Translations under genes and position numbers: made by a program | Notes under the pieces: generated by a model | What the model was told of the DNA's origin: nothing | What the model saw: only the letters and a program-made list of their open reading frames with translations | Databases searched by the model: none | Source: Harriotta raleighana | Taxonomy: Eukaryota | Length of the DNA stretch: 64,000 nucleotides | NCBI GenBank assembly: GCA_050575255.1 | Contig: JBNZDD010013326.1 | Location: 1-64,000 of the forward strand | Direction of reading: 5' to 3' | In this document: positions 1 through 52,000 of the stretch, piece by piece | Numbering within the stretch: position 1 is the first letter of the stretch | How the letters are laid out: every line of letters starts with the position of its first letter

Positions 1-364
1 ACAAACACAAATTGACTCCAGAACACAGTACAAACATCACAAGAAACTTTCTATTGTTCGGGGTGTTAGGATTGTGTTCTGGTGTCAGTGTTCTGCAGTC
101 ACTAGACATTATCATATTGATCATATTGATCTTCACAGTCGTACTGATTTTCACAGTTTATGATCAGAGTCAAACACCTCAATCCAATTCCCAACCTAAG
201 ACAACCAGGAATTCTAGATTTCAAAGTAGTTTAACACATTTAGCACCAATTGTGTTTTGAAAGTAATAGACGACTCACAGAATGGCTTGTAAGGCTCAAC
301 TGCAAAAGACAGTAAAGATCATTTACATTGAAACAGGCTGAACAAAGATTACACACTTGATGCG

Positions 365-1057: not shown

Positions 1058-1081
1058 CAGTTGTTTTCGGTGGGGAAGGCG
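1058..1081 (-). CDS. Family A microexon, 24 nt (TPSPPKTT)
   Basis: ttttcccag|CG ... ACTG|gtgagt. Confidence 0.8.
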
Positions 1082-4000
1082 CTGGGAAAATAATGGACAG
1101 GGTCACAATGACAGAAGGTGAAAGAATCCAAGGATAACATGTATCTGATCTCAGCACTGAATACAAATATACCAAACTACACGCCAGTTAATCAGGAAAC
1201 GTGCAGCTACTGGCTCCAGTACAACACGAATATCAAGCTTCACTTGAGGTAATTACAAGATAGTGCAGCTCTTTTGCTTGTTACCCGATATCAAGTCCGT
1301 TTTAAGGCGGCAACTTGAGCTGCATGAAGCCGATATCAAGAAGTGACTCACTTTGAGGGAAGTGACCCCAAGGTCTCCCTGGAAAACACAAACAAACATT
1401 AGTCAGGTGGGAAGGGTAAACCAAATTGGCTCACAAGAAAATGGAGAGCATATACCCATTCCTTCTTGGGAATTACAGCTGTGTAAACACACAAGTACAA
1501 ATATCATGCGGGCATTTCACCTTTCGGCATAGTTCAGGAAAGTTTGCTGAGAATGAAAGCATAAATAGTCATTGCTGCAAGAAAGATGGTTCTACACCCC
1601 TATCTGTACACCCCTATCAAGACATGGCTTTCTCACACTGGAGCATGTACTTGGTGACAATTAGATAAACTGGGCATGTTCACTCTGGAGAAGAAGTTTG
1701 AGGGGAATACGATTATGGTGTTTAAGAATCTGAAGAGGATAGATAATGTAGACCATAACAAGCTGTTTAATATGCTACTAAACAGTAGAAGCAGAGGTCA
1801 TACAATTGAAAGGAGCTAAATTAAGAACTAATCTGTGGAAACACTCAGTGTTCAGTACACAGGCTCCACAGGGTGATAGTGCAAGCAAAAATATTGTTTG
1901 TATGGATAACAAATTAAATAGAGTTCTGCTAGATTATAATATGTTAAGATTAATCAAAAATTTGAGATAAAACATAGGAAGCCACTGCCAAGTTGGTGGA
2001 AGATGATTTAGATGGAATTTTCTTTTCTTTTGCTGAGCAAATTCTTAATTATTGGAAGTGAAAGCCAACAAGGAAAATACACATCTGATTCCACCTGACA
2101 TCTGAATTCAAGTTGCCCAAATTCCAACCCATCCCACAAAACAGTGGGTCGTTGCTAGCTCCAGTCTGATACTTCATTATCAAGCTTCATCTGAGGCCAA
2201 TACAAGGTGGTGCGTTTGCTGCTCAATATCAAGGCCATTTTAAGGCTACAACTTGAGCTGTGTGAAATGGCTGTTAAAAAGTGACTATTTCCCGGTCAAA
2301 ATACAATTGGTAATTGCTCACATCAGTTTAACAGAAATAGACATGGAATCAATGACAAAATCATTATAATTTTTTTTCAAGGGATTATCGGTCTCTATTT
2401 ACTTTGGAAGAGGGAAAGTTCAATTATTTATAAATTATTCACCCTTCCCGGGTATTGAACCTTGATCCTTTCGCTTGTAAGGCTAGAGTCCATACAAGAG
2501 TTCAAAGAGTTAGATGAAACAACATAATTCTGCACGCGAATATCAAAATGAGGGGCAACATATTCCTCATTTCCTGGACTCAAAGTACAGTAAATACAGG
2601 GTTCACTCACCAGTTGTTTTAGGTGTGGGAAGACCTGAGAAAGTAAGGGGTAAAGGTCACTACTACAAGCATTGAAAACCAACCAGGCGAACACACATCT
2701 GATCCCAGCACTGAATTCAAATATCCCAAACTACATCTCAATCTGTCATGCAATGCATAACTACTGGCTCCAAAGAAAGACTTCAATATCAAGCTACACT
2801 GGAGGCAAAGGTTGTGCTGCTCCAAAATATCAACAACCAAATGACACAAAGGAAGTGCCTTCCATGGCAGGAGGACATTGCAAGGCTCTGAACAATCGAA
2901 GAACAGAAAGGTTGGAGCAGGATTGAGATGAGCGAGAGCTCCTGATACCACTATAAAGGAGGGTCTTGAGTCGAACCTTGAACAACAAAAGAAAATTATA
3001 TTTCTATGGTGCCTTCCACGTTGGGAGAACAACCTAATATGATGTACATTATTTTAGGCCTGTGTTGGGATCGTGGAGAGTGAAGGGAATGGGAGTGGAA
3101 TGCTACGTCAAAAATGATGGACTTCAGGTAGGACTCAAAGTAGGCTAGGGAGGGGGAGAGTCAGATGGATTGCACCATGGTATTCCAAGCATTGGGGGCA
3201 GAGTGACGAAATGCATACCCACCAATGGTGGGGCGTGTGAGTCAGTGAACATGTAGAAGATCCTGCTGAGAGGAGCAAGAGACCAGTTAGTAGGGTTTTC
3301 AGAGGTCACACATATAGGGTGATGCAAGGTCATAGAGGGTCTTCAAGCCCAGGATATCAGATTGAATCCTCTGTGTGTTGGGGAGCAAGAGTCGAGCAAG
3401 AATACGGGTGATAGATTAGTGGAGCATGGTTCGAGGGAAGACATGGGCTATATAATCGTAGATGGACTGCACTCTATGGATATGCTGACCATTTGTGACC
3501 AAGTTACCCTCTGCCTCCTCATCCTCCACGACCTATCCAAATCCTTCGACACTGTGGACCATTCAATCATCCTCCACCATCTTTCATCCCACCTAAACCT
3601 TCAAGGTTCTATACTTGACTGATTCTGGTCCTATCTGTCACACTGCTTCAAGTTTACGTCCTCCAATGGCTTTTTCTCCAGCCTGCACATTGCCTAATGC
3701 CTCATCCCTCAGGGCTCTGTCCTTGGTCACCTCCTGACATTAAGTCTTGGATGAGGGACAACTTTCTCCAGTTGAATGTCCGCAAAACTGATGCCCTCCT
3801 GATTGGCTTGCATCAGTGCCTCCACATCTCAGGTGCTGGCAGGATTATATAGCGACCTCCACCCCAGATGGTGTCTCAGAGCGCTTCACAATAAAGGAAC
3901 CCGGGGCTGAGCCAGGGGCAGGGGGAAAAGTTGACCAAAATGAGGCAAAAAGATTGAGGAAGGGGTTCCAGAGGCTGGGGGTGTAGTGGCTGCAGGCAAT

Positions 4001-7000
4001 GGCACCAATGGCGGATTGATGATTCAGAAGCCAAGGAAGAGGCCACACCCATGAGAGTGAAGGCAATGGATACTGTTTTGGTGAGAGAGAAGGTCCGAGA
4101 TCTAGGGATGTGTAAAGGAGTGGAGAGAATTGAAAACAAGAGTGAGGATCTTCAAATCGATCCTCTCTGAGACAGGGAGCCATTGCAGTCTGGCAAGGAC
4201 TGGTGGATTCAGGGAGTGAAGTTTGGTACATACGAGAATGCGGGCGGTAGAATTTTGGATATCCTGGATTTTATGAATGAGCAGAGGGGGAAATGGGGAG
4301 GAGGGCATTGGAATGGTCCCCCACTAATCAGGTCCCAACCTAACTGCTTTGGGACATCCTACCGATGTGAAAGTCGCTACACAATTGTAATTTTGTTTTT
4401 GTTGTTGTAGTCCAGCCGAGAAGTGACAAAAACATGGACCAGGGTTTCAGTGGCTTTTGGGCTAAGATACTGCTGTAGACGGGCAATGTGTCGGAGATAA
4501 AAGAAGGCGGTGCTGGTTAAGGACCAGATGTGGATGAAGAAGGATAATTGGAGGTCGAAACATATGCCTTCGTTTTCTTACGGGTTCGGAAAGTTAGGGG
4601 CAGATTGGGTATGCGGAGGACATGATAGCCATAGGAGTGAACTTGTTGATGAGAGCCAAAGAGTATACCTTTGATATCGTAAACATTTAGTTGAATTTTG
4701 CGCTCATCCAACTCCTGATGATGGACAGGCTGTCAGAGCATCAGGTGACCGGAGCTCGCAAATTGAGGTTGAAAAATAGACTTGGGTATCATCCACATAC
4801 ATGAGGAAGCATACCCCATGTTTGAAGGTAGCATCACCAAGAGGGAGCATCCTTGCCGTAATAATAATAATCATAATGTTAATCATAATGATAATCCTTG
4901 CATTTGATATAGAATTTTCAACATCTTCTAGATGTCTCAAAGTGCTTCATAGAATATACTGTAAAGTTAATTGAGTGTATAATTGTGGGCAAAACACGCA
5001 AACAATTGTGCAGTGTGTCCCACAAACAGTCGTGGAATGAAATGACTGATCTTGTTATGGTTTCTATTTGAGGGATTATTATTAGGCATGTGAAATAAGG
5101 AAATTTGCCTTCGCTGGATTCGAACACAGGTCTCATGTTTGTACGATGAGTGCTGTAACCATTGTTCGACTGGTTTCCATGCCATGAAGACCTATAGATA
5201 ATTGGTTATAGCACCCCTCAGGGTGCAAAAACCCTTGTCCATGCATTCGCCACATCAAGGCTCGCCTATGAAAACTCTCTCGTCCTCTGCCATCCCCGCT
5301 CTTCCGTTCATCAAGAACTCTGCAGCTTGTATCTCTCCGACACTGAGCTCTGCAACCACATCACTCCCACCCTCACCCAGCTCTACTTGCTCCTGATCCC
5401 CCAGAGGAGAGAATTCAAGTTTAAACTCAAGATTAAACTTAATCTTCAAATCGATCCTCACTCTTGTTTTCAATTCTCTCCACTCCTTTACACATCCCTA
5501 CATCTCTAACCTCCTCTCTCATCACAACAGTACCCATTGCCTTCACTCTCATGGGTGTGGCCTCTTCGTTGGCTTCTGAATCATCAATCCACCATTGGTG
5601 CCATTGCCTGCAGCCACTGAGCCCCCAGCCTCTGGAACTCCCTTCCTCAATCTCTTTGCCTCAATTCCTTCCTGGCCTCCTTCATGGCCGGTCTGAACGA
5701 GTACTCTCCTCTTTGATCGTGCCTTCACCTGCCCTCCCAACTTCCTCCTTCCCCAATTTACTCACTTACTTCCCTCCCCCATCAGCTGCCCTTTCTACGG
5801 GGCTCAATCTAACTGTTCGGCGCTTTGGGATGGCCTCCCCAAGTGAAAGACGCTCTATAAATGCATTGTTGTTTGGAGCCAGTCAGTGCCTGAAGTGCAG
5901 AGGTGCAGGCACAATCCACGGTTCCTCAGCCTTGTTGACTTTTAACTTCAGTAAGTTAGATCTCATCCAGGATGATGTCTAACATATTGATAGGGAGAGG
6001 CAAAGAGATAGAGATCGGTGTCATCCAAGTCATTTAGAAGGTTACTCCATGTCTTTGGATGATGCAACCAACATAGAGGTTAAAGAGGAGGGCACTTGGG
6101 AACAGACCAGTAAAACATTACGTGAGATTTTGAGATGTATGAGAAATATTTGGCAGAAAAATATTGGCGAGATCTAAGAAAAAATTGAACCATTCAACAA
6201 CAGAACCTGCAAGATTGAGGTGAGATGAGAGGCAGTGAAAGAAAAAGGATCCATCCATTTTATGAACAAAGTGACTGCAGGTCTTTTCAACGCTGTAACT
6301 TTAGCAAGTATTTAAATCGACTCACTTGTATGTACGTAACTCCAAGGTCTCCCTGGAAAGCACAACCCAATGTTAGTCAAACGGGAATATCAAACAAAAT
6401 TACTGGGTGTTGGAGACTATAAAGTAATAAATGGCTCAGAACAAAATGCAGAACATATCCTCGAAAATAACACCAGTGAAAACACTCAACAAGTAGAACA
6501 TGTGTATATGAAAACACACGTTCAATGGTTTATAGTTGATCAAATCTTCTGCAAACTGAAATGAATCCCAGCGGAGAGTTCAGATGCACAGACCCCACTC
6601 GCGTTTCTCCAGAGTAAAATTCATCTGGCCTGTGTCTTCTGATTTTCCAGTCTGTCTATGTCTTCTTCCAGTCTACTCCTATTGTTCTCACAGTTTGCTG
6701 TTCTTCCCAGCTTAGTAGCATTGGCAAACTTGGAAAATATACTTCCTAAACCTACTTCGAACTTATTCAGCTGATAGGCATCCTCTCGGTGTATTGCCGA
6801 GAAATTGAAATTTAGACCAAGAATCTTAATTCTACACGTGAATCTCAATAGGATCACAGAAATATATAGCACACAGGCAGGCCTTTTAAGGTATCTAAAC
6901 CAGCTCTTTCAATAGAGCTATCCAAATCAATCTTACAGCCTGCTCTCTACTCAGGGGCCTGAAAACTTCTCCTCCCAAAATAATTACCCTATATTTGCTT

Positions 7001-10000
7001 ATATAGATGCCAAGGTCTCACTGCTGTGTTACTCTTTAAGATTGTACCACTCAGCTAATGTTGGCTCTCCTTATTCTTCCTTCTAAAATCCATGTCTATG
7101 CACTTTTCCACATTAATCTTCATCTGCCACTTGTCTGCCCATACCACCAGTCTGCCTATGTCCTTGAAGTCTGGTTACTATTTACCTCATCATTTACAGT
7201 ACATCCTAGCTTAGAATCTTCTGCAAAATTGGAAATTGTACTCCCTGTAACCAAGTTCATGACATTATATAATCAACAGATCATTGGTCAATAAATTCTG
7301 AATTTCCTGGGCTATAAGAACAGTAAAAGCGGGGCTCACTCACCAATAGTTTTGTGTGGGAGAGTGGCTGAGAAAATAAGAAGCAATGGTCACTACTGCA
7401 GAAAGTGAAAGAATCCACGGAAAACAAACATCTGATCGCAAATATCCCAAACTAATATCCCATTGCTGGCTCCAATCTAACACTTGAATGTCAAGCTTCA
7501 TCTGAGTCAAGTTTATGGCGGTATGTTCTTTCCCCTGTTACTCAACATCTTTAGCCCACTTTAGGGCTCCAAATTGAGCTTTATGAAGCCGATATTAAAT
7601 AGCGACTCACTTATAGGGATGCGACTCCAAGGTCCCTCTGGAAAACACAAACAAGCATTATTCGGAAGGGAAGAGTAAAGGAAATAACTGGATNNNNNNN
7701 NNNNNNNNNNNNNNNNNNNNNNNNNNNNNNNNNNNNNNNNNNNNNNNNNNNNNNNNNNNNNNNNNNNNNNNNNNNNNNNNNNNNNNNNNNNNNNNNNNNN
7801 NNNNNNNNNNNNNNNNNNNNNNNNNNNNNNNNNNNNNNNNNNNNNNNNNNNNNNNNNNNNNNNNNNNNNNNNNNNNNNNNNNNNNNNNNNNNNNNNNNNN
7901 NNNNNNNNNNNNNNNNNNNNNNNNNNNNNNNNNNNNNNNNNNNNNNNNNNNNNNNNNNNNNNNNNNNNNNNNNNNNNNNNNNNNNNNNNNNNNNNNNNNN
8001 NNNNNNNNNNNNNNNNNNNNNNNNNNNNNNNNNNNNNNNNNNNNNNNNNNNNNNNNNNNNNNNNNNNNNNNNNNNNNNNNNNNNNNNNNNNNNNNNNNNN
8101 NNNNNNNNNNNNNNNNNNNNNNNNNNNNNNNNNNNNNNNNNNNNNNNNNNNNNNNNNNNNNNNNNNNNNNNNNNNNNNNNNNNNNNNNNNNNNNNNNNNN
8201 NNNNNNNNNNNNNNNNNNNNNNNNNNNNNNNNNNNNNNNNNNNNNNNNNNNNNNNNNNNNNNNNNNNNNNNNNNNNNNNNNNNNNNNNNNNNNNNNNNNN
8301 NNNNNNNNNNNNNNNNNNNNNNNNNNNNNNNNNNNNNNNNNNNNNNNNNNNNNNNNNNNNNNNNNNNNNNNNNNNNNNNNNNNNNNNNTCCAGTTCAGCA
8401 TTTCAATATCAAACTGCATCTGAGGCAAAGGATGTGCTTCTCCTCCAACATCAACAAAATTATACAAATAAATCAACTTCCAGATGGACGGATATTAGGA
8501 CTCAATCTGGGATGGTTGAACGATGGACCAGTGAATGAGGAGGGTCTTGCGGCATCACTTGAAGGAGGCTTGGGTTGTGGCAAGCCAGAGCAATTGTGCG
8601 GTGGAAATTCAGAGATTGGGGACAGAGTGGCAGAAGACTTGACTGGCGATGGTGGGGCGGGTGGGGAGGTGGTAGCTAACATGGGGTGTAGGGAAGCTTA
8701 CAATGGCGAAGGGTAGGCTAGCTAACCTGGATTGGGTTCAGACTATTTAACATGGGGTGATAGGATGACTAACATTGTAGGGGTAGTCATGCTACCATGG
8801 GGTAGGCGTTAACATGGGGGGTAGGCGAGCTAACATTGGGCGGGGAGAGTGTAAATAGTTGAAATTATAGTATAAGTTTTATTGATCATGTAGTAAATAA
8901 TCAAATCAATTAAAATGTATTGAACAAATGATGCCATGTGGTTTGGAATACACAAACACAGTTCACTATAGAAACATTTAGATAGACTTATACTTGAATG
9001 TGACTAGATAATGGGATTGGGAGAATAGCACTGAAAGAGCTGAGAAATGTTCAGACCAGTAAGTCACGCAGACAGAGCCAAAGACAGGACAATGAATTAT
9101 TGAAAATGTTCTGACCATCAAGGACAAGTAAGTCAGGAGGTCTGGTCAGGCTAGATAAGATGGAATGGAGCAAATTTTCTAAGGTGTACAAAGTAACAAA
9201 TTTGAAGATAGGGAAGAATGCCAAGAGAAGGTTAGCAAATATACACTTTACACTATATATTGTGTGGAGCACTATGAGACAGGAGAAGTTTAACACAGTG
9301 GCAGAGATGGCAGAAGTATAACACGATAGCAGGAATGAAGCTGGTCAGAAACGAAAGGATCTCTGAAGGGAGGTAGAGATCCTAGTCTAGCTCTCGGCAG
9401 AGTAGAGCACAGAAGGAAGCACGTCTAGTTCTTGATACAGTGAACGACAAGCAACAATGCAGCAGAGAAAACAAGCCAAAGACGTTTGCAGCCAGAAGCA
9501 AGTCAGAGGCTGTGTTTAATTCTTGGGCCAGCCACACATCCATACGAGGAGTCCGTTGAGCAATCTCTTGACTACTCTTTAGTATCTATCCTGCTGACTA
9601 ATACATGCATCCAATATACCAGGACAGTCAGTCATTGCTTAAGCACATCTCTTATACCAAACAAGGTTTCTTTTATGTTTAGAATTATGATTTTTAAAGA
9701 ACCTTGTTAAGATAGTATTTTAGTTGGTTTCTGACAAACGCTTTACTCCCGTGCTCCCCTCTCCAAGGTGCAAAAACCTTACATACTACCTTAAATCTGT
9801 GCACAAGTTTGGTCACCACACTTTAGGAAGGATATTAAGCCATAGGAAAGGGTGTATAGCAGATTTACTGGGATGAAACCAGGAATGAGGGAATTCAGCT
9901 ATGAGGAAAGGCTACATAGGCTAGGCTTGTTCTCTCTAGAACAAAGAAGATTGAGAGGAGAACTAATAAAGGTTTATAAGATAATGAAAGGTATCAGGGT

Positions 10001-13000
10001 AAATAGGGAAAGACTGTTTCCACTGGTGGGTGAATCAGTGACTCGTGGTCACAGATTTAAAATAGTTTCAAAACGAAGCAGAGGGGAGCTGAGGAGAAAT
10101 GTTTTCACGCAGCGGGTTGTTCGAATATGGATTGCCTGAAAGGGTAGTGGAGGCAGATTCCATAACAGCTTTTAAAAGCGAACTAGAGATTTATTTAGGA
10201 AGAGCAGGACTGTTAAGTTATGGGGAGAAAGATGGGCAGTGGGATTGAGTTGCTCTGTTCAAAGAGCGGTCCCAGACTAGATGGGCTGAATGGCCTCCTT
10301 TTACGCCATATAATTCTATGATTCTATAAAATCCTCCCAGTACGACAGCTATGTCCGATCCTGTAAGGCACAAAAACGAGCCACAGAATGCACCAGGAGT
10401 TAATCCAAACTAATGATCCATCATTATATTTAGCTGGATTACACACAGATCTACCACTCCACCTTTGTCTCTGTCAAATCCTCAGTCTATTCAAGGTGAT
10501 CGTGGAACCCAGTGAAACTGCCAGGCTTCTCCTATGCACTATTAACCACTCCCTCCATCCACCTTTCCATACCTCGCCAACCCTTTCCTCCATTTACATG
10601 GAGTTGCTGGAATTCCTTGAATCCATAATTGAGGGGATGCATTCGAACAACAAGCAGGTCAGAGCTCACTGAGCGGAGGAAGTAGAAAGATTGGTAGGGT
10701 GTTAGGAGCTGACCAATATAGGTTTGGGAAAGGCCATGGAGGGCCTCAAAGGTGAGGACCTCTATATTTTTGTGGAACCATCCAAAGACATGGTGTGAAC
10801 TTACAGATGTGCTTGGATGACACCCAGCTCCATCTCTCTGCTTCAACCTGACTAGCTATCAGAGATCAAGTCCTAGATGAGAACTAACTTTCTAAAGTAA
10901 AATGTCAATAATACTAAGGACCTCCTGATTGGCTCGCACTAGCGTTCATTCAAGAATAGTTTTTGTCACTGTAGTTTCCTTCCAGGTAAGAGGGAGATTT
11001 AGCTAAATTAGACTGGGGAAATATATGAAAGCATATGACAATAGATCATCAATGGCAAGATGTAGTGCATAATTCCCAGCAGTCACAATTCGCTTGAGGA
11101 ATAAAAGTATCACTTGAAAGTTGTTCTTTCATGACTAAGTAGAGCAGTTAGGAGTTAAATCTTTTAGAGTTTTGTGAGGAGATAACTATCAGATTATATA
11201 CGGGTGAATGAATAGATGTAATGTATTTAGATTTTCAAAAGCCATTCAATAAGTTGCTGCATAAAAGACTGATTCACAAGATTAGGGTCCATGGAATTAA
11301 AGCTAACATACCAGTGTGGATTGAAGAGTGGTTAACAAGAAGAACATAGAGAATAGGGATAAATAGATTCTTTTCAGATTGGTGGAATGTGACTAGTGGA
11401 GTTCCACAAGTATCAGTGCTTGGGCCTCAACTATATCGATGATCTAGAGTAGAACATCACATTTAAAAATATCTAAATTTGTAGATGATACTAAACTAGG
11501 AAGGGGAGTAAATACCAAGGATGACACAAAATAATACAACGGCTTACAGATAGGCTAGAAAAGTGGGCAAGAAGATGATAGATGAAATATCATGTGGGGA
11601 AGTGTGAAGTTATTCACCTCAGTAGTAAAAACAGAAAAGCACATTGTTTTCTGGAAGGGGAGAGACTAGATTGTGTGAGTGCAGAGGGACTTGGGTATCC
11701 TTGTACACCAGTCACAAAAAGTTATTATGCAGGTACAGCAAGCAACTAGGATGGTCAAAGGTATGTTGGGTTAGAATATAAGAGTAGGGAAGTCTTGCTG
11801 CAACTGTACAGGGCCCTGGTGAGACCCTACCTAGAATATTGTGCACAGTTTTGGTCTCCTTATTTAAGAAAGGATGTACTCGCCTTGGAGCAAGTACAGT
11901 GTAGATTCACTAGGTTGGTACCTGCAATGACGGTGACGTGTTATGAAGATAGGTTGAGCAATGCAGGCCTATATTCACTAGAATGTAGAAGAATCAGAGG
12001 TGATTTTACAGAAACCTATAACATTATTAAGTGGCATGACAGAGTAGATAATGGGAGGTTACTTCCCCTGGTTGGAGACACTATAACTATATGTCATTGT
12101 CTCATAGTCTTACGATTAGGAGTCAGCCTTTTCGCACTAAGTTGAGAAAAAACAGTTTCACTTAGAGAGTAGTGAATTCTGGAAATCTCTACCCCAAAAG
12201 GCTGTATTGAAGATTGATATTGATAGATTTCTTATGGATCAAGGGATTAAGGGATATGGGAATAAGGCAGGTGGGTGGAGTCAGATTTGAAGTTCAGCCA
12301 TGAATATATTGAATGGCAGAGCAGGCTTGAGGGCGTCGAATGGCCTAGATTCTAGATTCATAAGAATGATTCCAGGAATGGGGAACCTTAGCTGTGAGGA
12401 TGGCTGGAGAAGTTAGAACTTTTCCCATTAGAGCAGAAAATGTTATGCGCGAATCTGATAGAGGTCTTCAAGATCATGAAATGTTTCGACAGGCTAGATA
12501 GGGAAAAGCTGTTTCCACCGGTAGGTGTGTCTCACAGACTTAAGATATCTACCAAAAGAAGAAGAGGGGAGGTTAGAAGAAATGTTTTCACTCAGCGAGT
12601 TGTTCGAATTTGGAATGATCTGCCTGAAAGGGTAGTGAGTTCCAATTTGACAGCAGCTTTTAAGAGAGAACTAGATAGGTATCTGGGGAAGATGGGTTTG
12701 CAGAGTTGTGGGGAGAAAGCTGGTGATTGGGGTTAATAAAAGTGACATTGCTCTGCCAAAGAGCCGGCACAGACTCGATGGGCCGAATGGCCTCCTTCTG
12801 TGCCGTAACATTCTACGATTCTATTTTCCTGCTCCTAATTCTTATGTTCTTATTTCAGAACATGCAATTTTGAGGTGAGAAGAGAAACAGTGGAGGAGGT
12901 TGGAGTGATCCAATATATCGAAAGCAACAAAGAGGTTGTAGGCCATTTTAAGGCTGCAACTTTAGCTCTGTGAAGGAGGTGTTCGAAAACAACTCACTTG

Positions 13001-16000
13001 TAGGGACAGGACTCCAAGGTATCCCTGGAAGACGCAAACAAATGTTTGTCAGACAGGAATATTCAGGATAATCACATCTTCAGTGGATTACAGATGATCA
13101 CGTCTTCTGCGAACTGAAATGTATCCCAGCAGAGGTCAGATGCACAAACTCCAGTTGCATTCACCTTCATAATGCAGGATTACTGATTGCTCCTCACTTA
13201 GCATTTCTCCATTGTAATCTTCATCTGCCCTGTGACTGCCCATCTTACCAGTCTGTCTATGTCTTCTTGCAGTCTGAATGCTGTCATGCTATTTAGAAAT
13301 CTATCCAGCTTAATATTAGCTGTAAACTTGGAAAATGTACTTCTTAAACCTAACATTAGTCAATCTTACCCATCTGATCAATAGTAAATACATTCTGCAG
13401 CTCCTGGGTTCTACATACAGTAAACATGGTGCTCACTCACCAGATGTTTTAGTTGTCAAAGAGGCTGAGAAAATAATGAGCAAAAGTTAATAATATAGGA
13501 AATAAGAGCCGGCCAGAAAACACATTTCTGATCCCAGCACTGAATTCAAATATCCCAAACTACACTACAGTCCATAATGTAATGTGAAATTTCTGGCTCC
13601 AATCCAGCACTTATATGTCAAGCTTAGTGTGAGACATATGAGGTGCTGCTGCTCTCTCGTTTGCTACTCAATTACCAGACTATTTTAAGAGCTGTATGAA
13701 GTTGATAATAAAAAGCAACTCACTTGTAGTGACGTAATTTGAAGGTCTACCTGGAAAACAAAAGCAAACGCCAATCAGATTGGAAGATTTAAGGAAATCA
13801 CTGGATATTTGAGAATATGATCAATCATGCAGTAAAATGGGAACCATAATAATAATCTTTGCATTTAATGACCTTATCGTGACTTCAAGCTGTCTGATTG
13901 CATATTATGTGGGAAAAATACAGCTGCCAGTTATGCACAGCAGTGTCCCACAAAGGGGCCTGGATTGTGCAACCCAATTATTAATATAGTAGTTTTTTAA
14001 ATAAATCATTACACCTGAAAAAGCAAACCACTGATCATCCAATATCCAAGTTTGTACTTACTACAGTAAAACTTTGTTTATCCGGCACGCTTGGGGTGGG
14101 GTCGACGAATTGACGGTGCCGGATAAACAGGGAGAAGTCGCCGAAAACTCGACATGAAAACTTAACTTAATTTAAAACATACCATGTTAATAATACACTA
14201 CATAGTAACAGAATATTGTATGGAGACATACCAACAAAGCATTCTAGCAGAATCGCAAAAAAATCGGTAACACTGCATTTTGTAACCAATCAGTAAAAAG
14301 CTTAAGTGCGTAAGTTTAATAAGTGAGCATGCGCACGCATTGCACGCATGCACAAAGTGAGCAAACTCGTGATTCTGGAATGGGGAATTGTCCTGGTAGG
14401 GGATCGAGCAATTGAATCGAGTCACGGTTGTTCGGGTCATGGATAAACAAGGTTTTACTGTATTAGGTTATCTGAAGCATGAAGCAAAAGGAATCTACTC
14501 AACAGTTTGCAATGCTGGGAATTTAACCCAGGTTTCTCGCTTGTGAGTTATTTGCTCTAGTCACTGAACTGCAGGAATCCATCAAATTGAAAATTAAATT
14601 CAGACACTGCTGGGAATTACACTTGTCCAAACACACAACAAATAAAACCTGCATTCAGAAAAATCATATAAGAACCTAAGAATTAGGAGCACAAGTAGGC
14701 CGTTTAGCCCTTCGAGCCTGCCCCACCATTCAATAAGATTATGGCTGATCTTCTGGCCTAACTCTAATTACCTGCCCTATCCCCATATCCCCTAATCAAG
14801 GACCAAGCATCTATAGCCTTCTGGGGTAGTGAATAAATTCACTACGCTCTGAGTGAAGAAATGTCTCTTCAACTCTGTTCTAAAAGTCTGACACTTAATT
14901 TTAAGACAGTGACTCCTGGTTATAGATTCTCCTACCAGGGAAAACAGTGTCTCAGTGTCTACTTTATCCAGCCCTTTCAGAATCTTATATGTTTCAATAA
15001 GATCCCCACTAATTCCTCTGTAAACTCTCGAGATTACAGCCCTAGTTCATTCAACCTATCCTCATAGGTCAGTCCCCTCATCCCAGGAACTAACCTAGTG
15101 AATCTACGCTGCATCCCATTTAAGGCAAGTATGTTCTTTTTTAAATAAGGAGACCAAAACTGCACACAATACTCTAGAGCAGACACCCCAAAGCCCTATA
15201 CAGTTGCAGCAAGACATCACTACTATTGCACTCTAAACGTTTTGAAATAAACACTAGCATGCCATTCGCCCTCTTAGTTGCTTGCTGCACCTGCAAACTA
15301 ACTTTTTGAGACTGGTGTACAAGGACACCCTTTGAATACTAACAATAGTTAAACTCTCTCCTTCGATAAAATAATCTGTTCTTGTATTTTTCCTACCTAG
15401 GGGAATAATTTCACACTTGCCAACATTAAATTCCATCAATCCAAACATTCAACTACAAAACCTAGCACTGAGTCGTTCTCACTGCTCTCTGCAATTAATA
15501 TGTGGAACATATAACAAGCGCGTTTCTCACCTATCGGCAACTGTTCAGGAAAGCTTGCTGAGAAAGAAAAAAAGCAAAGTCACTGCTGCAGGTACTGAAA
15601 GCTGACAACACAAACACAAATTGACTCCAGAACACAGTACAAACATCACAAGCAACTTCCTATTGTTCGGGGTGTTAGGATTGTGTTCTGGTGTCAGTGT
15701 TCTACAGTCACTAGACATTATCATACTGATCATATTGATCTTCACAGTCGTACTGATTTTCACAGTTTATGATCAGAGTCAAACACCTCAATCCAATTCC
15801 CAACCTAAGACAACCAGGAATTCTAGATTTCAAAGTACCAGTTGTGTTTTGAAAGTAATAGACCGACTCACAGAATGGCTTGTAAGGCTCAACTGCAAAA
15901 GACAGAAAAGATCATTTACATTGAAACAGCCTAACCAAAGATTACACACTTGATGAGATAACATAAGAACATAAGAACTAGCAGCAGGAGAAGGCCATTT

Positions 16001-40000: not shown

Positions 40001-43000
40001 GTTTGTAAGATGAGTGCTTTAAACATTCATCTACCGGACTCCATGCCATGGAGACGTATAGATCAATGGTTAGAGCACCCCTCAGGGTGCCAAAATCCTT
40101 GTCCATGCATTCGCCACATCAAGGCTCGCCTATGAAAACTCTCTCCTCATCTGCCATCCCCACTCTTCCCTTCATCAAGAACTCTGCAGCTTGTATCCTC
40201 TCCAACACTGAGCTCTACAACCACATCACTCCCGCCTTCACCCAGCTCTACTTGCTCCTGATTCCCCAGAGGATAGAATTCAAGTTTCAACTCTATGTTT
40301 CCTGCCCGACCTATCCTACCATCGGTCAACAGGCTTTGAACATCTAATCCCCCACAATGTGGAACTCCATTCCATAGTCTCTATGCCTCACTTCCTCCCT
40401 GGCCTCCTTCATGGCCGGTCTGAAGACTCTCTTCTTTCACCGTGCCTTCTCCTCCCAACTTCCTCCCTCCCCAATTTACTCACTTGCTTCCCTCCCCCAT
40501 CAGCTGCCCTTTCCTCGGGGCTCAATCTAACTGTACAGTGCTTTGGAATATCTCCCTGAAGTGAAAGACGCTCTATAAATGCATTGTTGTTTGGAGCCAG
40601 AAAGTGCCTGAAGTGCAGAGGCGCAGGCACAATCCACGGTTCCTCAGCCTTGTTGACGTTTAACTTCAGAAAGTTAGATCTCATCCAGGATGATGTCTAA
40701 CATATTGATAGGGAGAGGCAAAGAGATAGAGATGGGTGTCATTCAAGTCATTTGTAAGTTTACTCCATGTCTTTGGATGATGCTACCAACATAGAGGTTA
40801 AAGAGGAGGGCACTTGCGAACAGACCCAGTAGAATATTAGGTGAGATTTTGAGGAGATGTATGAGAAACTTTTGGCAGAAAAATATTGGCGAGATCTAAG
40901 AAATAAGGCCTGAACCATTCAACAACAGAACCTGCAAGATTGAGTTGAGATGAGAGGCAGTGAAAGAAAAAGCATTCATCCATTTTATCAACAAAGAGGC
41001 CACAGGCCTTTTCAAGGCTGTAACTTCAGCTGTGGGAAGCAAATATTTAAATCGACTCACTTGTATGGACGTAACTCCAAGGTCTCCCTGGAAAGCACAA
41101 CCAAATGTTAGTCAAACAGGAATATCAAACAAAATTACTGGATGTTGGAGACTATAAAGGAATAAATGGCTCAGAACAAAATGCAGAACATATCCTGGAA
41201 AATAACACCAGTGCCATCACACAACAAATAGAATATGTGTATACGAAAACACACGATCAATGGATTATAGATGATCAAATCTTCTGCAAACTGAAATGTA
41301 CCCAGCGGAGAATTCAGATTCACAGATCCCACTCACATTTCTCCATATTAAACTTCATTTGCCCTGTGTCTTCTGATTTTACCATTCTGTCTATGTCTTC
41401 TTGCAGTCTGCTCCTATCGTTCTCACTGTTTGCTGTTCTTCCCAGCTCAGTATCATCTGAAAACTTGGAAAATGTACTTCCTAAACCTACGTCCGTCTTA
41501 TTCAACTGGTCAATAATAAATATAGCTCCTGGGTAATCATGGTGCTCACTCACCAGATGATTTAGTTGTCAAAGAGGCTGAGAAAGTAATGAGCAATAGT
41601 TAATAAGATAGAAATAAAAGACAGCAAGGAAAACAAACATCTGATTCCTACACTGAATTCAAGCATCCCAAACTACACTACAGTCCATAATCCAACCTGG
41701 AATTTCTGGCTCCAATCCAACACTTGCATATCAAGCTTACTCTGAGACATATACAAGGTCATTTCTCATATATAGAGCATATAGAGCAATTGTGGGGAGG
41801 AATTCCAAATGTTGGGGGCTGAGTGCCAGAAGTGAGAACAGACAGATGTGTTTTGATGACATGCAGCTCTATCTCTCTGCCACACCCTGAATAGCTGTTG
41901 GACGTCAAGTCCTGGATGGGAACTAACTTTCCAAAGTTAAATGTCAATAATACTGAGAACCAACTGATAGGTTTGTGCAAAGCTACCATTCAAGGACAGA
42001 ACCTGCAAGATTGAGGTGAGAAGACAACTGGTGCAGGAGGACGGAGTGGTCCAATGTATCGAAGGCAGCAAAGAGGTTGCGGGCGATTTTAAGGCTGCAA
42101 CTTCAGCTCTGTGTAGCAGGTATTTGAAAGCAACTCACTTGTATGGATGAGACTCCAAGGTCTCCCTGGAAAAGACAAACAAATGTTAGTCAGACAGGAA
42201 TATCAAAGGAAATTACTGGGGATTGGAGAGTATAAAATTATAAATATTTGTAATCTTTAGTGGATTAAAGATGATGTCTTCTACAAACTGATATGTATCG
42301 CAGCGGAGAGTTCAGATGCACAAACCCCATTTGCATTCACCTTCATGATGCAGAGTTACTGATTGACCCTCGCTTTGTATTTCTCCACATAAAATTTTAT
42401 CTGCCCTCCGCCTACCCATTTTACCAATCTATCTGTCTCCTTGCAGTCTGCTGTAATCATATTGTTTACTACTCCACCTATCTTAGTATTTTCTGCAAAC
42501 ATGGAAAATGTACTTCCTAAACCTAAATCCGTCATTTTCATCTTGTCAATAGTAAATACATTCTGCAGTTCCTGGGTTCTAAGTGGATTATGAGGTGGTG
42601 CTGCTCTCTCGTGTGCTACTCAATATCCAGACCATTTTAAGAGCTCCATGAAGCAGATATAACAAAGCAACTCACTTGTAGGGATGTAATTCGAAGGACC
42701 ACCTGGAAAATACAAGCAAACGCCAATCAGATTGGAAGACCTTGGCAAATCACTGGGTGTTGGAGAATATAGTGAATCAAGCAGCTCATAGTAAAATAGG
42801 TATAATAATAATAATCCTTGCATTTGCATCATGACTTCAAGCCATCTGAAATTGCTTCAAAGAATATACAGTAAACTGAATTGATTGCATATTATATGGG
42901 AGACACGTATCTGCCAGTTACTCACAGCAGAGTCCTGCAAAGGGGCCTGGATTGAGCAACCCAATTATTAATAGATTTTTAAAGGAATCATTACCCCTGA

Positions 43001-46000
43001 AAAAGAAAACTGCCATCTGCCTAATAACCAAGTTGCTACTTACTTCTAGGTTACCCAAGGTGTGTAGCATCATAAGGAAACGTGTCCAACAGTTTGCATG
43101 GCTGGGAATTGAACCAAGGTTTCTCGCTTGTGAGTCAAGTTCTTTACCAATGAGCTGCAGGTATCCATCATATTGATCCAACACAAACCCCGCTCGCTTA
43201 CCCCTTCATCGTGCAGGATTACTGATTGCTCTAAACATTCAAATAACAAATACAGCACCAAGACAATATTCTCACTGCTCCCTGCAATTGATATGCGAGG
43301 TATATAACAAGCATCTGTCTCACCTATCGGCCGCTGTTCAGGTAGTCTTGCTGAGAAAGAAAGAAAGGAAAGTCACTGCTGCAGTACCTGAAAGCTGACA
43401 ATGCAAACACACACTGACTCCAGAACACAGTCCAAAAACCTATTTTGCTGAATTTCACATTTCCTGATCAGAGCCAAACACATCAATCCAATTCTCAACC
43501 CAAAGCAACTGAGAATTCTATATTTCAAAGCAGTTAACACTTTGAGCACCAGTTTGGTTTGGAAAGTAATAAATGATTCACAGAATGGCTTGTAAGGGGG
43601 AAATGCAAAAGACAGAAAAGATCATTTACAGTGAAACAGGCCAAACATAGATTACACAGTTGTTGTGATAACAAATTAAGTTACAACAAATTGAACGATG
43701 GACTCCAGCGTTGATAGGCATCCTCTCAGTGTATTGCCAAAGTTGAAATTGAGACCAAGCAATTTAATTCTACATGTGAATCTCAATACGTTCAAAGAAA
43801 CACACAGCACAGCAGGCCTTTTAAGGTATCTAAACCAGCTCTTTCAATACAGCTATCCAAATCAATCTTACAGCCTGAATTGGAAGCTGCCATAGTCAAT
43901 CTTTGATTGTAAACAGACTGTGTTTATTTGTGTACCCCGTCTTTTCACACTCTAAAAAAGCACGGTCAGGTAAACTCAACAGAGTTGAATTGTAGTTTCA
44001 GTGAAATTCACAAAACATGGCACTAAACCTTGTGAAACAAGGAATATCAACAAGCAACTCTGAAATAGTATCCCACACATAGAAGTAGACACAGTGATAA
44101 AGTGATTATGATTAGTTTTTGAAGGGATTCTTATTCTTATTAAAGGATAACCTATTACGAGGTGAATAGAGACAAATCGAGTAATATAAATTGACAAATT
44201 ATTCACCCTGCCCAGAAATAAAATCCTGGTCCTCTCATTTGTGACCCCTATGTGCACGCTCATGATATGGGTCACTCCCATTGCAGTGTGTACCTGGTAG
44301 CTTCAACAACAACTTTGATTTATATTGCACCCTCCATGCTCAGAGCGCTCAAGCTTCTGATTCAAATGTCACAAAATGAATTCAAGTCCATATAACATTT
44401 ATTTAAATGATGAGAAAATAATCTGTAATGACAATGAAAAGGAACTGGGAATCCTGCTGCATAATAAATTGAAGCTATCCCAACACTACTGAGCAGTTGA
44501 AGCAGAGGGCATGCGTTTGAAAGTGACTAAACTTAGAACAATTCTGTGGAAACACTTAGTGAGCCTTTAACAAACTAAAGCAATAAGCTTCCTTAGGTGA
44601 TGTGGAAGCAGAAAATATTGTATCCTTGAAGAGGAAAATAATATCTCAAGATTTCGTAAAACATTTCAGACACCAATTGAAGCCACTGCCAAGATGGTGG
44701 AAGGTGAATTAGATGGATGTTTGCTTTTTTTTGCTTCGCAAATTCTTAATCATTGCAAGTGAAAGCTGACAATGAAAATACACATCTGATTCCATCCATT
44801 ATTTGAATTCAAATAGCCCAAATTCCACCCCGTTCCATCATGCAGTGAGCCATTGCTGGCTCCAGTCTGACACTTCACTATCAAGCTTCTTCTGAGGCCG
44901 ATACAAGGTGGTGCTGCTCTCTCGTTTGCTCCTCAATATCAAGGCCATTTTATGGTTGCAACTGGAATTGTATGAAGCAGATATTAAAAAGCAACAATTT
45001 TGTGGGAAAAGTGCAGACAATTATACATGGTAGTTTCATAGAAATTGTCTTTTTTTTTCCAAGTGATTGTTGATCCCTGTTGACTACTGGGTTAACAGAA
45101 GTTATTTTGGGGAGAGGGAAAGGTTAATTATTTGTCAATTATTAACCCTGCACAGATATCGAAAGCTGATACTTTCACCTGTAAGGCAAGCATTCTAACC
45201 AACTGAGCTGCAGTGCTCCACATCTTAGTTCTCAACTTAAGGCAACTGGGAATTTATATTTGAGTGACATTTAACATATTCAGCATGAGTTGCGTTCAGA
45301 AACTAGGAAAGAACTTCACAGAATGGCTGGTAAGACTCAACTGCAAAAGAAAGCACAGATCATTTGGAGTGAAACACGCAACACGCGCATGAAACACGTG
45401 ATGTAAAAGCAAATTGCATTGAAATTATTTCAACAATTCACTCCAAAAGTGATACAGACATGATCGGTATAAAACAAGAGTTGAAACTTAGACCAAACAA
45501 TATAATTCTGCGCATCAATCTCTATGATATATTCTGCATTTCCTGTGCTATAAGTACAGTAAATATGGGGTTCACACACCAGTTGTTTTATGTGTGGGAG
45601 GGGCTGAGAACGTAAGGAGCAAAGGTCACTACTACAGGAAGTGAAAACCAAGAAGGAAAACACATATCTGATCCCAGCACTAAATTCAAATATCCCAAAC
45701 TACAACCTAGTCAATCGTTCAATGTGCAATTACTCACTCCAGTTCAACATTTCAATATCAAGCTGCATCTGAGGCAAAGGTTGTGCTGCTCCTCCAACAT
45801 CAACAAAATTATACAAATAAATCATCTTCCAAGGTGGGAGGACACCCTACCTGGAGAGATATTTGGACCCAATCTGGGATCCGTGTGTGTGATGGTTGAA
45901 TGATGGACTGGTCAATCAGCAGGGTCTTGAGGCATCACATGAAGGAGGCTTGGGAGGTGGCACGCCAGAGCAATTGTGCGGTGGAAATTCAAAGATTGTT

Positions 46001-49000: not shown

Positions 49001-52000
49001 ATCGATGATCTAGATGAGGACATACTTACATAGCACCTTCTGTCAGCATTAAATCTTGTGATGCAATAGATGTCAACAAACAACTATGAAACCCAGGAGC
49101 CAAATGTGCACAATAGTTTCCCACACTTAGGTGTGGATTGAATGATCAAATTATTATTATTTTTTTAAAAGGGATTTTTACATCCAGAAAAGTGATCCAT
49201 TAATCGACTAACAACAGGATTCTAAATTACTAGCAATTGAACAAAGGCAGGTGGAATACAGCAACTTGGGAAATTATTTACACTGCCCAGGAATCAAACC
49301 CTGGTCCTCTTGTTGCAAGGTCAGCAAGCTCACTCCTAAACTGCAAGACTTTACATCACAATTCTCAACCTAAAGCAACTGGGAATTCTATATTTGCAAC
49401 ACCAGTTTGATTTGGAATCTAGCAAATGACTTACGGAATGGCTTGTAAGGCAATGGATTTCAATGCCTTGGGATGTTGTCCTGACATGAAAGGCACTATA
49501 CAAATGTAATTTTGTTGTTGTTGTTGGATGAACTGCAAAAGGACACTTACAAAGAAGCAGGCAAAACAAAGATCACACAGTTAACATGATAACAAATTAA
49601 TTCCAAAGGAATTGAATGATTGAAAACAAAAGTTTTACACAAATAGGTATGTTACAAAAGTTGAAAGCTACTTCATTCTGCTCAACAAGATGGACAATAC
49701 ATTATGCATTTCCTGGGCTGTACGTACAGTAAATAGGGGGTTCACTCACCAGTTGTTTTAGGTGTAGGAAGGGCTGAGAAAGTAAGGAGCAAAGGTCACT
49801 ACTACAGGAAGTGAAAACCAACAAGGAAAACACACAACAACAACTAAATTACATTTATAGAGCGCCTTTCACATCGAGAGGACGTCCCAAAGTGCTGAAC
49901 AGTCAGGTCGGGACCCGAGCAAGGGGGAGGAACAGGGTACGGGGGACGGGAGGGAGAGAGTTAGGAGGGCAGCAGAAGACACAATCGAAGAGAGGTTCTT
50001 GAGACCAGCCTTGAAGGAGGCAAGGGAGGAAGTGAGATGAAGGGACTGTGGGATGGAGTTCCAGAGTGTGGGGGCAGAGAGGTTAAAAGCTTATCCAGGA
50101 TAGATCAGGTAGTGGACATGGAGCAGACTGAAGCCCACTGAACTGAGAGGCAGGCAGATTCATACGGAGTCAGCTGGTCAGAGAGACAGGAGGGAGCAAG
50201 GCTGTGAATGGCATAGACAGTGAGGATAAGGATCTGATCATTTGATCCCAGCACTAATATCAAATATTCCAAACTACAGCCCAGTCTGGCATGCAATGTG
50301 CAATTCCTGGCTCCAGTCTAACAATTCAACACCAAGCTTCATCTCAGGCTAACACAACATGGTTCTGCTCTTTCGTGTGCTACTCAACATCAAGAACATT
50401 TGACGTTAACAGCTGGTTGTGTTAAAAAAATGTAACAGAAGTGACTTACTTTTGGGATTGTAATACCAAGGTCTTCCTGAAACAGAGTAAAACAAATGAT
50501 GAATAGTGGTTAGCAACTTGTCTGTGTAAAGATCTATGTAGATATAAAAAGAGAAAAGTAACATCATTTTCTATCACCTCAAAGTCTAGGCTGATGTTCC
50601 AAAAGCAACACTAACAAAATTATAATTGTATAGCTCTGAGAGGATGTCCCACAGTGCTGAAAGCAGTGCCTGGAGAGGAACTCTGCTTTGTTATAGATGT
50701 CCTCATCTTTGCTGAACCTCTAAACCAGTGGTGGCCAACTGGCTGGAATTAAGGAGTGCCCATCAAGTAGTGCCCAGTGAACTAGAAATGATAGATCTTG
50801 TATTTCCAGTTTTCTCTTGATTGCATACATCTTGATTTGTTGCATAAATTAAGAAATGATCAAACAAAAAAGTGTATTTCGCTATCACATCAATCCCACC
50901 CTCGCCCATCTCCACTGGCTCCCCATCTCCCAAAGGATCAAATTCAACATCCTCGTCCTCACTTTCAAGGCCATTCACGGCCTTGCCCCCACCTCTCTGA
51001 CCTGCTGTCTCCCTATCAGCCTGCCTACCCCCTTCATTCAGCACTCAGGCTTGTTCCGCATTGACCGCCCTAACCACCCAACCATCGGTGGCCAGGCTTT
51101 CAGCTTCTCTGCTCTCACACTGTGAAACTCCATCCCGCAGCCCCTCTGCCTTGCTTCCTCCCTTTCCTCCTTCAAGTGCTTCTTCTTCGACTGCACCTTC
51201 AGCTCCCCCTCTAACTCTTCCCCCTCCCTCTCCCCAGAACCCCCCCCCCCCCAACACCCGCCCCCACCCACCTTGGGTCCTGACCTGACTGTTCAGCGCT
51301 TTGGGACATCCTCCCGACATGAAAGATGCTTTATAAGTGCAATTTTGTTGTTGTATTTTTGGCCAACCATAAAAATTGCAATAATCCAGGGTCATCTCTG
51401 CTGCTCAGTTGGATTTTAAAGATCACATGATTAACCTCTATAAAACTTTGGTTAGAGCTCAGCTAGAGTACTGTGTTCAATTCTGGAAGGATGTTTAGGA
51501 ATTGGAAAGGCAGAGGAGATTTACCAGGATGGAACCAGGAATGAGGGATTTCAGTTATAAGGAAAGGCTAGAGATGCTAAGTGCATTCTCATTGGAGCAG
51601 AGAAGATTACGAGGAGACATCATAGAGGTTTTCAAGATCATGAGGGGATTTGTTAGGGTAAACAGTGAAAAATTGTTTCCACCTGGGGTGTGTCAGTGAC
51701 TCGAGGTCACAGATTTAAAATAGTTTCTAAAAGAAGCAGAGGGGAGGTGACGAAAAAAAAATTCACTCAGCAAGTTATTCAAATCTGGAATGTATTGCCT
51801 GAAAGGGTGGTGGAGGCTGATTCAATAATAACTTTTAAAAGAGAGGTAGATGTTTATTTGGGGAGAATGGATTTGCATGGTTATGGGGAGAGAGCTGGGG
51901 AGAGGGATCAAATTGCTCTTTTCAAAGAGCTAGCACCGACTCGATGGACCGAATGGCCTCCTTTTGTGCCATATGGTTCTATGATGCTATTCGAAAAGAG

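Follow-up and report, generated by a model that had tools for sequence, protein, structure and literature searches.

A predicted array of phase-1 micro-exons encoding an aromatic-rich, Ser/Thr-poor central domain in a Muc6-family gene of the chimaera Harriotta raleighana

The window analyzed here is a stretch of 64,000 nucleotides of Harriotta raleighana DNA (GenBank assembly GCA_050575255.1, contig JBNZDD010013326.1, positions 1 to 64,000). On its minus strand, to which all exon positions below refer, it covers part of a putative Muc6-family mucin gene, namely the end of the D3 assembly and the start of the central domain. Muc6 mucins are characterized by three N-terminal D assemblies, a central region free of CysD domains and a C-terminal cystine knot that is not preceded by a fourth VWD; the C-terminus of this gene lies beyond the window and is also missing from the orthologue models retrieved. 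Five D3 exons (61748-54475) form one open frame that contains no stop and ends in phase 1. They encode a part of VWD3 (61563..61748), the end of VWD3 (61058..61297, with a Pfam VWD match), C8-3 (60591..60747, with a Pfam C8 match and the place where phase 1 is set), the TIL3 region (57863..58003, without a Pfam match) and the last Cys-rich piece of D3 (54475..54537). Three stop-free linker micro-exons follow, which also end in phase 1; those at 53658..53681 (24 nt) and 52335..52361 (27 nt) have counterparts in the Callorhinchus milii model, and that at 52853..52879 (27 nt) is absent from it. The central domain is then encoded by an array of predicted micro-exons that extends at least from 279 to 50476, reaches the left end of the window and probably continues beyond it. 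Its coding bases amount to only 1005 across 50.2 kb, with a median intron of 621 nt.

We recognized 40 intact micro-exons of 15-27 nt, which fall into four cassette families (17 B, 14 A, 5 C and 4 D). All 40 are in phase 1-1, have lengths divisible by 3 and are free of stops in phase 1; the other two reading frames, which contain 7 and 19 stops, are ruled out by these stops together with the phase 1 of the upstream exons. The splice sites are near consensus in 40/40, with 39 CAG acceptors and one TAG, and 33 GTGAGT, five GTGAGA, one GTAAGT and one GTGTGT donors. A profile of family B that was seeded on 16 of the 17 copies scored all 17 at 39.5-84.8 bits, including 73.0 bits for the unseeded copy at 6326, while the next minus-strand site scored -3.7 and the best plus-strand site -31.7. 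A Rfam scan of the window gave 0 matches, and the micro-exon array was not detected by Tandem Repeats Finder.

The 17 B exons, each of 27 nt, include the outermost ones at 50450..50476 and 1352..1378, and these match exactly the array ends given in an earlier note made from the sequence of this DNA. Its counts of B subtypes, Trp in 13 of 17 copies and PSNY in four, were also confirmed. The Trp type is found at 50450..50476 (the most divergent copy, RPWYYNPK), 42139..42165, 41061..41087, 37223..37249 (RPWGHFPQ), 33788..33814, 28126..28152, 25696..25722, 23683..23709, 17199..17225, 12998..13024, 7611..7637, 6326..6352 and 1352..1378, with an additional Tyr in those at 41061, 23683 and 6326, and the PSNY type at 42676..42702, 26235..26261, 24465..24491 and 13724..13750. 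The 9-residue B pattern proposed earlier fits 14 of the 17 copies; two depart from it at position 8 and one at the junction residue, which in that copy is read across an assembly gap. Tyr is present in the four PSNY copies, as was noted, and extends to 8 of the 17 B copies, four of them of the Trp type. It sits two residues after the Trp column and not in it.

Family A consists of 13 exons of 24 nt (49750..49773, 45580..45603 with the donor GTGTGT, 41554..41577, 36928..36951, 30178..30201, 27837..27860, 24971..24994, 17867..17890, 16905..16928, 13441..13464, 7344..7367, 2611..2634 and 1058..1081) and one shortened to 15 nt by an in-frame shift of its acceptor (24194..24208). Its description as Thr/Pro-rich with an invariant Lys holds, given that Lys is at the same place in 14/14 copies and that Ser+Thr and Pro make up 52 and 23%, respectively. 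Family C (43324..43350, 35455..35481, 28329..28355 with a Trp, 26880..26906 and 15531..15557) contains the PEQ motif in all five intact copies. Family D, which had been missed, comprises four intact 21-nt exons (29870..29890, EPYQPF; 24704..24724, EPYKPF; 15872..15892; and 279..299, the last in the window); it is rich in Tyr/Phe (29% aromatic) and has no Ser/Thr within the exon. The peptide that was suggested for proteomics corresponds to the predicted product of the B-A junctions 37223/36928 and 17199/16905.

Between the intact exons lie degenerate copies. D copies are found at 49435..49455 (acceptor side disrupted), 45320..45340 (weak donor GTGAAG, left out of the intact count), 43582..43602 (dead, acceptor CAT), 35822..35842 (dead, acceptor CAA) and 27153..27173 (dead, acceptor and donor altered). 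Two C copies are 26 nt long, a length that disrupts the frame, and in both the splice sites are damaged: the one at 37419..37444 is dead with the acceptor CAT, and the one at 1521..1546 has the weakened donor GTGAAA and was treated as dead. Among the linker exons, a dead exon-like copy at 53265..53291, with acceptor and donor altered, encodes a shark-type 9-mer with Tyr-Tyr-Pro-Pro. In aligned introns of the four families many gaps are not divisible by 3, and the 24-, 27- and 21-nt exons have no such gaps. With dead copies in lower case, the cassette order is BAdAdbdCBBABcBAdCBADCBAdCBBADBABABADCBABBABAcBAD, which is an eroded C-B-A-D cycle and not a strict alternation. The alternation of cassettes claimed earlier thus stands only insofar as 13 of the 17 B exons have an A as the next cassette, which none of 20000 shuffles reached.

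The array has grown by segmental duplications, most of them 70-93% identical, and the larger of these are offset by about 15-21 and 35 kb. Each symmetric phase-1 exon encodes one repeat, so that a segmental duplication can add copies, and the decay of splice sites can remove them, with the frame left intact. As the copies stem from segmental duplications, the Trp in 13 of 17 B exons does not represent 13 independent events. Five segments near 45015, 38211, 29559, 17548 and 2305 (minus strand) still have the intron found after B exons and have lost the exon and its splice sites; they are remnants of dead B copies. Over about 100 nt of upstream sequence, A exons and C exons show 68-70% similarity, which suggests that the two families share an ancestral unit. 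An assembly gap (N) occupies 7694..8388, and its flank at 8389-9797 matches 45738-47177, which leads into the A exon at 45580, so that the gap probably conceals one A exon or more.

The predicted repeat of 335 residues contains 22% Pro, 25.4% Ser+Thr and 10.7% W+Y+F (14 Trp and 13 Tyr among them), with 43 K+R (Arg, 6.9%), 10 D+E and 10 His, or a net charge of +9.9 per 100 residues. No Cys and no CysD domains were found in the part of the array that lies within the window. Ser+Thr are distributed unevenly, at 52% in A, 16% in B, 9% in C and 0% in D, and peak at 30% in any 100 repeat residues. The repeat is therefore above a lenient threshold for Pro/Thr/Ser-rich (PTS) domains (20% Ser+Thr and 5% Pro; PMC2515642), yet below all tetrapod MUC6 tails with which it was compared. 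That comparison used 65 of 109 named MUC6 models, the 44 with post-D3 tails shorter than 200 residues being left out, and gave medians of 44.9% for Ser+Thr (minimum, 27.4), 2.6% for W+Y+F (maximum, 7.2) and +2.1 per 100 for net charge (maximum, +5.9). The window repeat lies outside the tetrapod MUC6 range for aromatics, Ser+Thr, Pro and charge. The earlier view that the domain is more aromatic than classical PTS domains is borne out by all 65 tails. Its basic character, also noted earlier, does exceed that of every tail; as 63 of the 65 tails are net basic too, however, what stands out is merely how large the charge is, and this would be offset by O-glycans.

The identity of the gene is indicated by its D3 exons. 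Exon 61058..61297 is 98% identical to C. milii mucin-6-like and 77-82% identical to shark/ray mucin-6-like models (14 hits among 17 candidates). The best 120 of 439 hits were mucin-6 or carried no specific name, and none was another mucin. Over 254 D3 residues, the identity is 92% to the C. milii model, 67-75% to 11 elasmobranch models, 52-55% to three chondrichthyan Muc6 models that form a second set and 47-54% to nine tetrapod MUC6. In an unrooted D3 tree of 25 rows, built with 9 of the 109 tetrapod MUC6 models and without a MUC2/5/19 outgroup, the window gene is sister to C. milii (support 100/98), and a 13-row clade (support 100/99) of holocephalans, sharks and rays stands apart from the other chondrichthyan Muc6 paralogue. 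To judge from these alignments, the VWD-C8-TIL assembly is closest to MUC6, and the gene is best read as a member of the Muc6 family that belongs to a second chondrichthyan paralogue spanning holocephalans, sharks and rays. Two Muc6 paralogues were described in C. milii by Lang et al. 2016 (PMC4948705), and P0003-P0005 presumably represent one of them. Equally sized contigs suggest that the two are neighboring genes in C. milii, skate and zebra shark. Models of the other paralogue (P0017, P0018 and P0019) end just after D3, and micro-exon arrays that escaped annotation may make up their central domains as well. The unnamed hit P0220, 58% identical to the window D3, was set aside, its membership of the clade being unclear. 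When 1.84 billion representatives were searched with a profile, the hits were general VWD mucins, and a full-length orthologue was not among them.

The D3 assembly itself appears to differ from that of tetrapod MUC6. D3 dimers of MUC2 involve C1088 and C1130, both of which are conserved in human MUC6, and VWF residue 1097 is the equivalent of C1088 (PMC6739602). Dimerization through two D3 disulfides also applies to MUC5AC and MUC5B. The window D3 keeps the Cys aligned to VWF C1097/MUC2 C1088, in exon 60591..60747. We placed C1130 through the published numbering (D1122, Y1123, N1125, C1130, H1133 and C1137; PMC6739602) and through 108 of the 109 tetrapod MUC6 models, which have it two residues before a Trp-His-Tyr motif. 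At this place in exon 57863..58003 the Cys is absent, as it is in 9/9 models of the same paralogue that reach the position. The only PDB match of the TIL-region exon was a chance one. As the C1130A variant of MUC2 yielded a mixture of monomer and dimer (PMC7599080), covalent polymerization may be weaker where the equivalent is absent.

Comparisons with other chondrichthyans were made with predicted protein models, not DNA. The end of the C. milii model P0005 is composed of 62 units (526 of the last 538 residues) in C-B-A-D order, among which 8 are distinct and both B subtypes are represented. Each distinct unit differs by 1-6 base changes from a window exon read in a shifted frame (shuffled means, 8-13), with the caveat that a few shuffles of the shorter units scored as low as the real ones. 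P0005 enters the array through sequence like that of a window intron, a polypyrimidine tract before a C exon, and leaves it through sequence matching the window intron after a D copy, on which basis we read its frame as an annotation error. In its D units, P0005 is similar to the D subtype whose copies in the window are dead. The PEQ motif, regarded earlier as invariant, does not extend to the C. milii model, where Gln is excluded in all 19 C units.

In the fragmentary models of Scyliorhinus (P0009), Cetorhinus (P0012) and Rhincodon (P0013) we noticed 9-residue units of the form acidic/Gly-Lys-Pro-x-x-Tyr-Tyr-Pro-Pro. They align with family B at the basic, Pro, Tyr and Pro columns with a mean BLOSUM score of 7.3 versus -6.0, a value reached by 0.24% of column permutations (31% for the alignment with C). 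The strict core Lys/Arg-Pro-x-x-Tyr-Tyr occurs nine times in the shark models and not once in 58,901 residues of 80 tetrapod tails. The last unit of each run is followed by Gly-Lys or Gly-Arg in the three models, which fits read-through into a phase-1 donor. The shark units contain 19% aromatics, 9.5% Ser+Thr and 0 Trp, and are net acidic (13 K+R and 21 D+E), so that a cation-pi design would be at most specific to chimaeras. The earlier proposal had been made dependent on conservation of the Trp/Tyr positions in orthologues, and here the outcome is divided: the Tyr and Pro columns are kept, and Trp is absent from the shark units. Given that chimaeras and sharks alike are rich in aromatics and Pro, this richness would be older than their split, while Trp, basic charge and the A cassette were seen on the chimaera side only. 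What appears to be conserved is an aromatic/Pro composition with no precise pattern. A search with the whale-shark repeat returned only itself (1 of 1 candidate), and an Atlas search with it gave no usable hit. As the orthologue models end at D3, are fragmentary or are out of frame, proteomic searches against them cannot match repeat peptides.

Taking these features together, we propose, with a probability of about 0.5, that the second chondrichthyan Muc6 paralogue is a secreted mucin of a gel or matrix, sparsely glycosylated and cohesive through its aromatics, and that this region is its central domain. Its history may have begun with a 9-residue repeat of the form basic-Pro-x-x-Tyr-x-Pro, which is the only unit seen in the shark models and would survive as family B; in chimaeras, B would have gained Trp and joined the C-B-A-D tetrad with the Thr/Pro cassette A and the Tyr/Phe cassette D. 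Like other gel-forming mucins, the protein would be secreted and assembled via its D domains, with D3 joined by one inter-chain disulfide rather than two. The suggestion that A cassettes are O-glycosylated spacers agrees with the concentration of Ser/Thr in A, a point of composition only, and O-glycans would then be clustered on A alone along a long Pro-rich chain. The Trp, Tyr, Phe, His and Arg side chains left exposed between these clusters could let chains cohere non-covalently with one another or with a polyanion or polysaccharide as partner, and the resulting gel or matrix may be denser and more cohesive than bottle-brush mucus. The predicted sequence shows the gene family, how the exons are designed and composed, that B is homologous to the shark repeat and that a cysteine is missing, and the sticker-and-spacer and egg-jelly interpretations offered earlier are kept as hypotheses.

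Several observations weigh against this proposal. In 17 disjoint sister pairs of cassettes, exons differ at 36 of 429 bases (8.4%) and introns at 259 of 2276 (11.4%; p 0.08), and the proportions of non-synonymous (pN) and silent (pS) differences are 0.088 and 0.097 (p 0.84). All-against-all pN/pS is 1.74 in B and 1.34 in A, compared with 0.62 in C and 0.23 in D. Neither test revealed protein-wide purifying selection in A and B, and the equality of pN and pS, with exon divergence close to that of introns, implies that most residues drift. In favor of constraint at a few positions, seven consecutive bases over Pro-Trp are invariant in 13/13 Trp-type B copies, compared with 13 of 100 intron columns (24 of 102 without an outlier). 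The 7 sister pairs of B exons show 10 non-synonymous changes, all of them outside the Pro/Trp columns, and no sister-pair change affects the Lys of family A. The Pro-Trp test was, however, post hoc, and as the invariant block includes silent sites, a splicing signal fits as well as protein constraint. On a flank tree, PSNY versus Trp as the ancestral state of B came to 2 changes, and to 1 in 14% of bootstrap trees. Selection on residues is thus weak outside a few positions, and the signs of selection for use as exons are the damaged splice sites of both frame-shifting C copies and the pattern of gaps in introns and exons.

Further points weigh against the proposal. Any 9-mer was found in only 3 of 11 elasmobranch models of the paralogue, 14 units in total, and the shark pattern was drawn up after the units had been seen. 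At the Trp column of the B units of C. milii, the shifted-frame protein permits Gly, Arg or Trp, and Trp is likely there by parsimony only. The C1130 equivalent is also absent from 2/3 models of the other chondrichthyan paralogue (its elasmobranch members; C. milii mucin-6 keeps it), so the loss is not tied to this repeat alone. The literature searched, with few subscription journals, contained no report on the expression of this paralogue, and the name 'mucin-6-like' did not occur in the papers checked for it. Phase-separating domains of the sticker-and-spacer type are aromatic/Arg-rich, low-complexity chains with evenly patterned stickers. Although the repeat has the former character (10.7% W+Y+F and 6.9% Arg), even patterning had to be rejected: the gaps between aromatics have a standard deviation of 7.6 against 8.2 in shuffled sequences, and 34% of 5000 shuffles were as even as the real repeat.

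Some of these points would be expected if the domain were a loosely constrained spacer, that is, an extended, Pro-rich, partly glycosylated tether whose aromatics were inherited from one much-copied exon and whose conserved bases serve splicing, with Trp and Tyr playing no particular chemical part. We consider this possible, if tentative. The equality of pN and pS, the similar divergence seen in exons and in introns and the silent sites that are invariant alongside Trp all accord with it, as do the many dead cassettes, the variation of Trp, of the Gln in PEQ and of net charge between lineages, and the passage of the lenient PTS threshold (PMC2515642). A mere spacer would account less readily for the persistence of high aromatic/Pro and low Ser+Thr contents in chimaeras and sharks despite sequence turnover, for family D, which brings Tyr/Phe independently of B, or for a composition that none of the 65 tetrapod MUC6 tails comes near. 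It is very improbable, in turn, that the cassettes are not translated in the assumed frame, being skipped, decaying or read in a shifted frame as in the C. milii RefSeq model. The exons are predicted from sequence alone, P0005 does read homologous units in another frame, and overall selection is weak; yet the shifted frame contains 7 stops within the window, the upstream exons fix phase 1, the splice sites are near consensus throughout, the shark models show the related repeat in the phase-1 frame, and the passage of P0005 into and out of its array through matching intron sequence is the mark of an annotation error.

Other explanations are specific to a tissue and overlap with the cohesive-mucin reading. 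Holocephali have no stomach (PMC6346038), which excludes a purely gastric role. The oviducal gland is one candidate among several, and the ampullary gel is another. It has been shown that beta-ovomucin, an egg-white gel protein, is chicken Muc6 (PMC1552070), in agreement with what was said of the avian orthologue earlier; given two chondrichthyan paralogues and an unrooted tree, the link of the window gene to it is indirect. Elasmobranch egg jelly has been described as a mucin hydrogel with a solid layer (PMC11496042), and mucus is made in the club and papillary zones of the oviducal gland in both egg-laying and live-bearing species (PMC8471067). These findings, together with one missing D3 disulfide and a resemblance of the shark units and family D to the Lys-Pro-x-Tyr-Pro-Pro core of the mussel foot protein 1 (MFP-1) decapeptide (PMC9999432), could point to an oxidatively cross-linked egg-envelope or adhesive protein that the oviducal gland would deposit in the solid jelly plug or capsule, and whose Tyr/Lys/Pro repeats would serve as substrates for 3,4-dihydroxyphenylalanine (DOPA) or dityrosine formation. 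We regard this as unlikely, as expression in the oviducal gland was not found in the literature searched, the resemblance is that of short low-complexity motifs, the shark repeat had no usable hit in the Atlas, and the cationic MFP-1 repeat contrasts in charge with the acidic shark units. Trp, moreover, is about as frequent as Tyr in this chimaera (14 versus 13). It is not a DOPA precursor. Aromatic residues do stack on sugars, and the repeat could instead act as scaffold in a gel that is rich in polysaccharide and special to cartilaginous fishes, for example that in the ampullae of Lorenzini, with aromatics stacked on chitin and basic residues bound to keratan sulfate. The presence of the paralogue in holocephalans, sharks and rays would suit such a role, and the ampullary gel contains chitin and keratan sulfate, with a proposed mucin scaffold and protein that adds to viscosity (PMC8379299). 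This possibility is nonetheless doubtful, and we rate it below the egg-envelope one: Muc6 is not named for that gel in the literature searched, the word 'mucin' is absent from the main text of a catshark sensory-organ paper (PMC11979771), and in the accessible portion of a shark skin mucus proteomics report mucin-5B and mucin-2-like are named and mucin-6 does not occur (PMC10707392). A more speculative version, which we also hold to be unlikely, is a Muc6 hybrid between mucin and adhesive, in which one disulfide would have been lost, the glycan brush replaced by Tyr/Trp-Pro repeats and setting achieved through aromatic or oxidative (DOPA, dityrosine) chemistry in egg envelopes or ampullary gel, with exon birth, death and alternative splicing tuning the chemistry by lineage or tissue.

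Two further features of the introns were observed. Fragments resembling the reverse transcriptase of long interspersed nuclear elements (LINEs), which we take to be of the CR1 and L2 types, lie on the plus strand at 11750-12145, 18873-19640, 20318-21022 and 62138-62641. Two 1.45-kb copies at 18086-19539 and 19531-20984, which are 99.7% identical, adjoin an N at 19540 and hold such a reverse-transcriptase-like fragment, are likely an assembly overlap or a very recent duplication.

The Muc6 family, its duplication in C. milii and mucin domains with one exon per repeat, as in chicken Muc13 and MUC2, were known already. The literature searched, in which few subscription journals were represented, contained no description of this central domain, its aromatic chemistry or the lost cysteine. 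The defining feature of gel-forming mucins is a glycan brush rich in Ser/Thr; if our proposal is correct, an aromatic-rich, Ser/Thr-poor Muc6 with one D3 disulfide fewer would indicate that the same scaffold can hold a gel in another way. It would also be a specific candidate, recognizable by diagnostic peptides, for the backbone protein of chondrichthyan gels such as egg jelly and ampullary gel, which we did not find named.

The closest known counterpart of the window gene is C. milii mucin-6-like (P0003-P0005), its sister, which shares 92% of the 254 D3 residues and the four cassette families in C-B-A-D order; its units vary much less, the 62 falling into 8 distinct ones, and their annotation follows a shifted frame, and its central domain is not described in the available part of the report on the C. 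milii Muc6 paralogues (PMC4948705). The elasmobranch mucin-6-like models (P0009, P0012 and P0013) share the clade, a B-like 9-residue, Pro/aromatic-rich and Ser/Thr-poor repeat after D3 and, where they reach it, the absence of the C1130 equivalent; they differ in having Tyr-Tyr for Trp, a net acidic charge and a single family in fragmentary models. Tetrapod MUC6, including chicken beta-ovomucin, has the same D3 architecture, a Cys-free central domain and, in 63 of 65 tails, a net basic backbone, in contrast to its median of 45% Ser+Thr and 2.6% aromatics and its C1130 equivalent in 108 of 109 models. In human MUC6, the PTS domain is reportedly encoded mostly by one large central exon (PMC6269512). 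The exon design is more reminiscent of chicken Muc13 and MUC2, whose repeat domains are split over many exons, with one exon being one unit in Muc13 (PMC1552070; PMC3549977). Those repeats are rich in Thr/Ser/Pro, belong to other mucin families and, in MUC2, consist of longer units, whereas the exons of the window array measure 15-27 nt, belong to four families and together supply about 1.0 kb of coding sequence over 50 kb; as in Muc13, one predicted exon corresponds to one repeat, and 40/40 are frame-preserving and in phase 1-1. With the decapeptide of MFP-1 the window shares a short Lys/Pro/Tyr repeat, a likeness that we treat as an analogy without evidence of homology. MFP-1 has no D domains, and it is in MFP-1 that DOPA and hydroxyproline have been demonstrated; for the recombinant MFP-1 repeat, a review reports pi-cation self-coacervation at seawater salt (PMC9999432).

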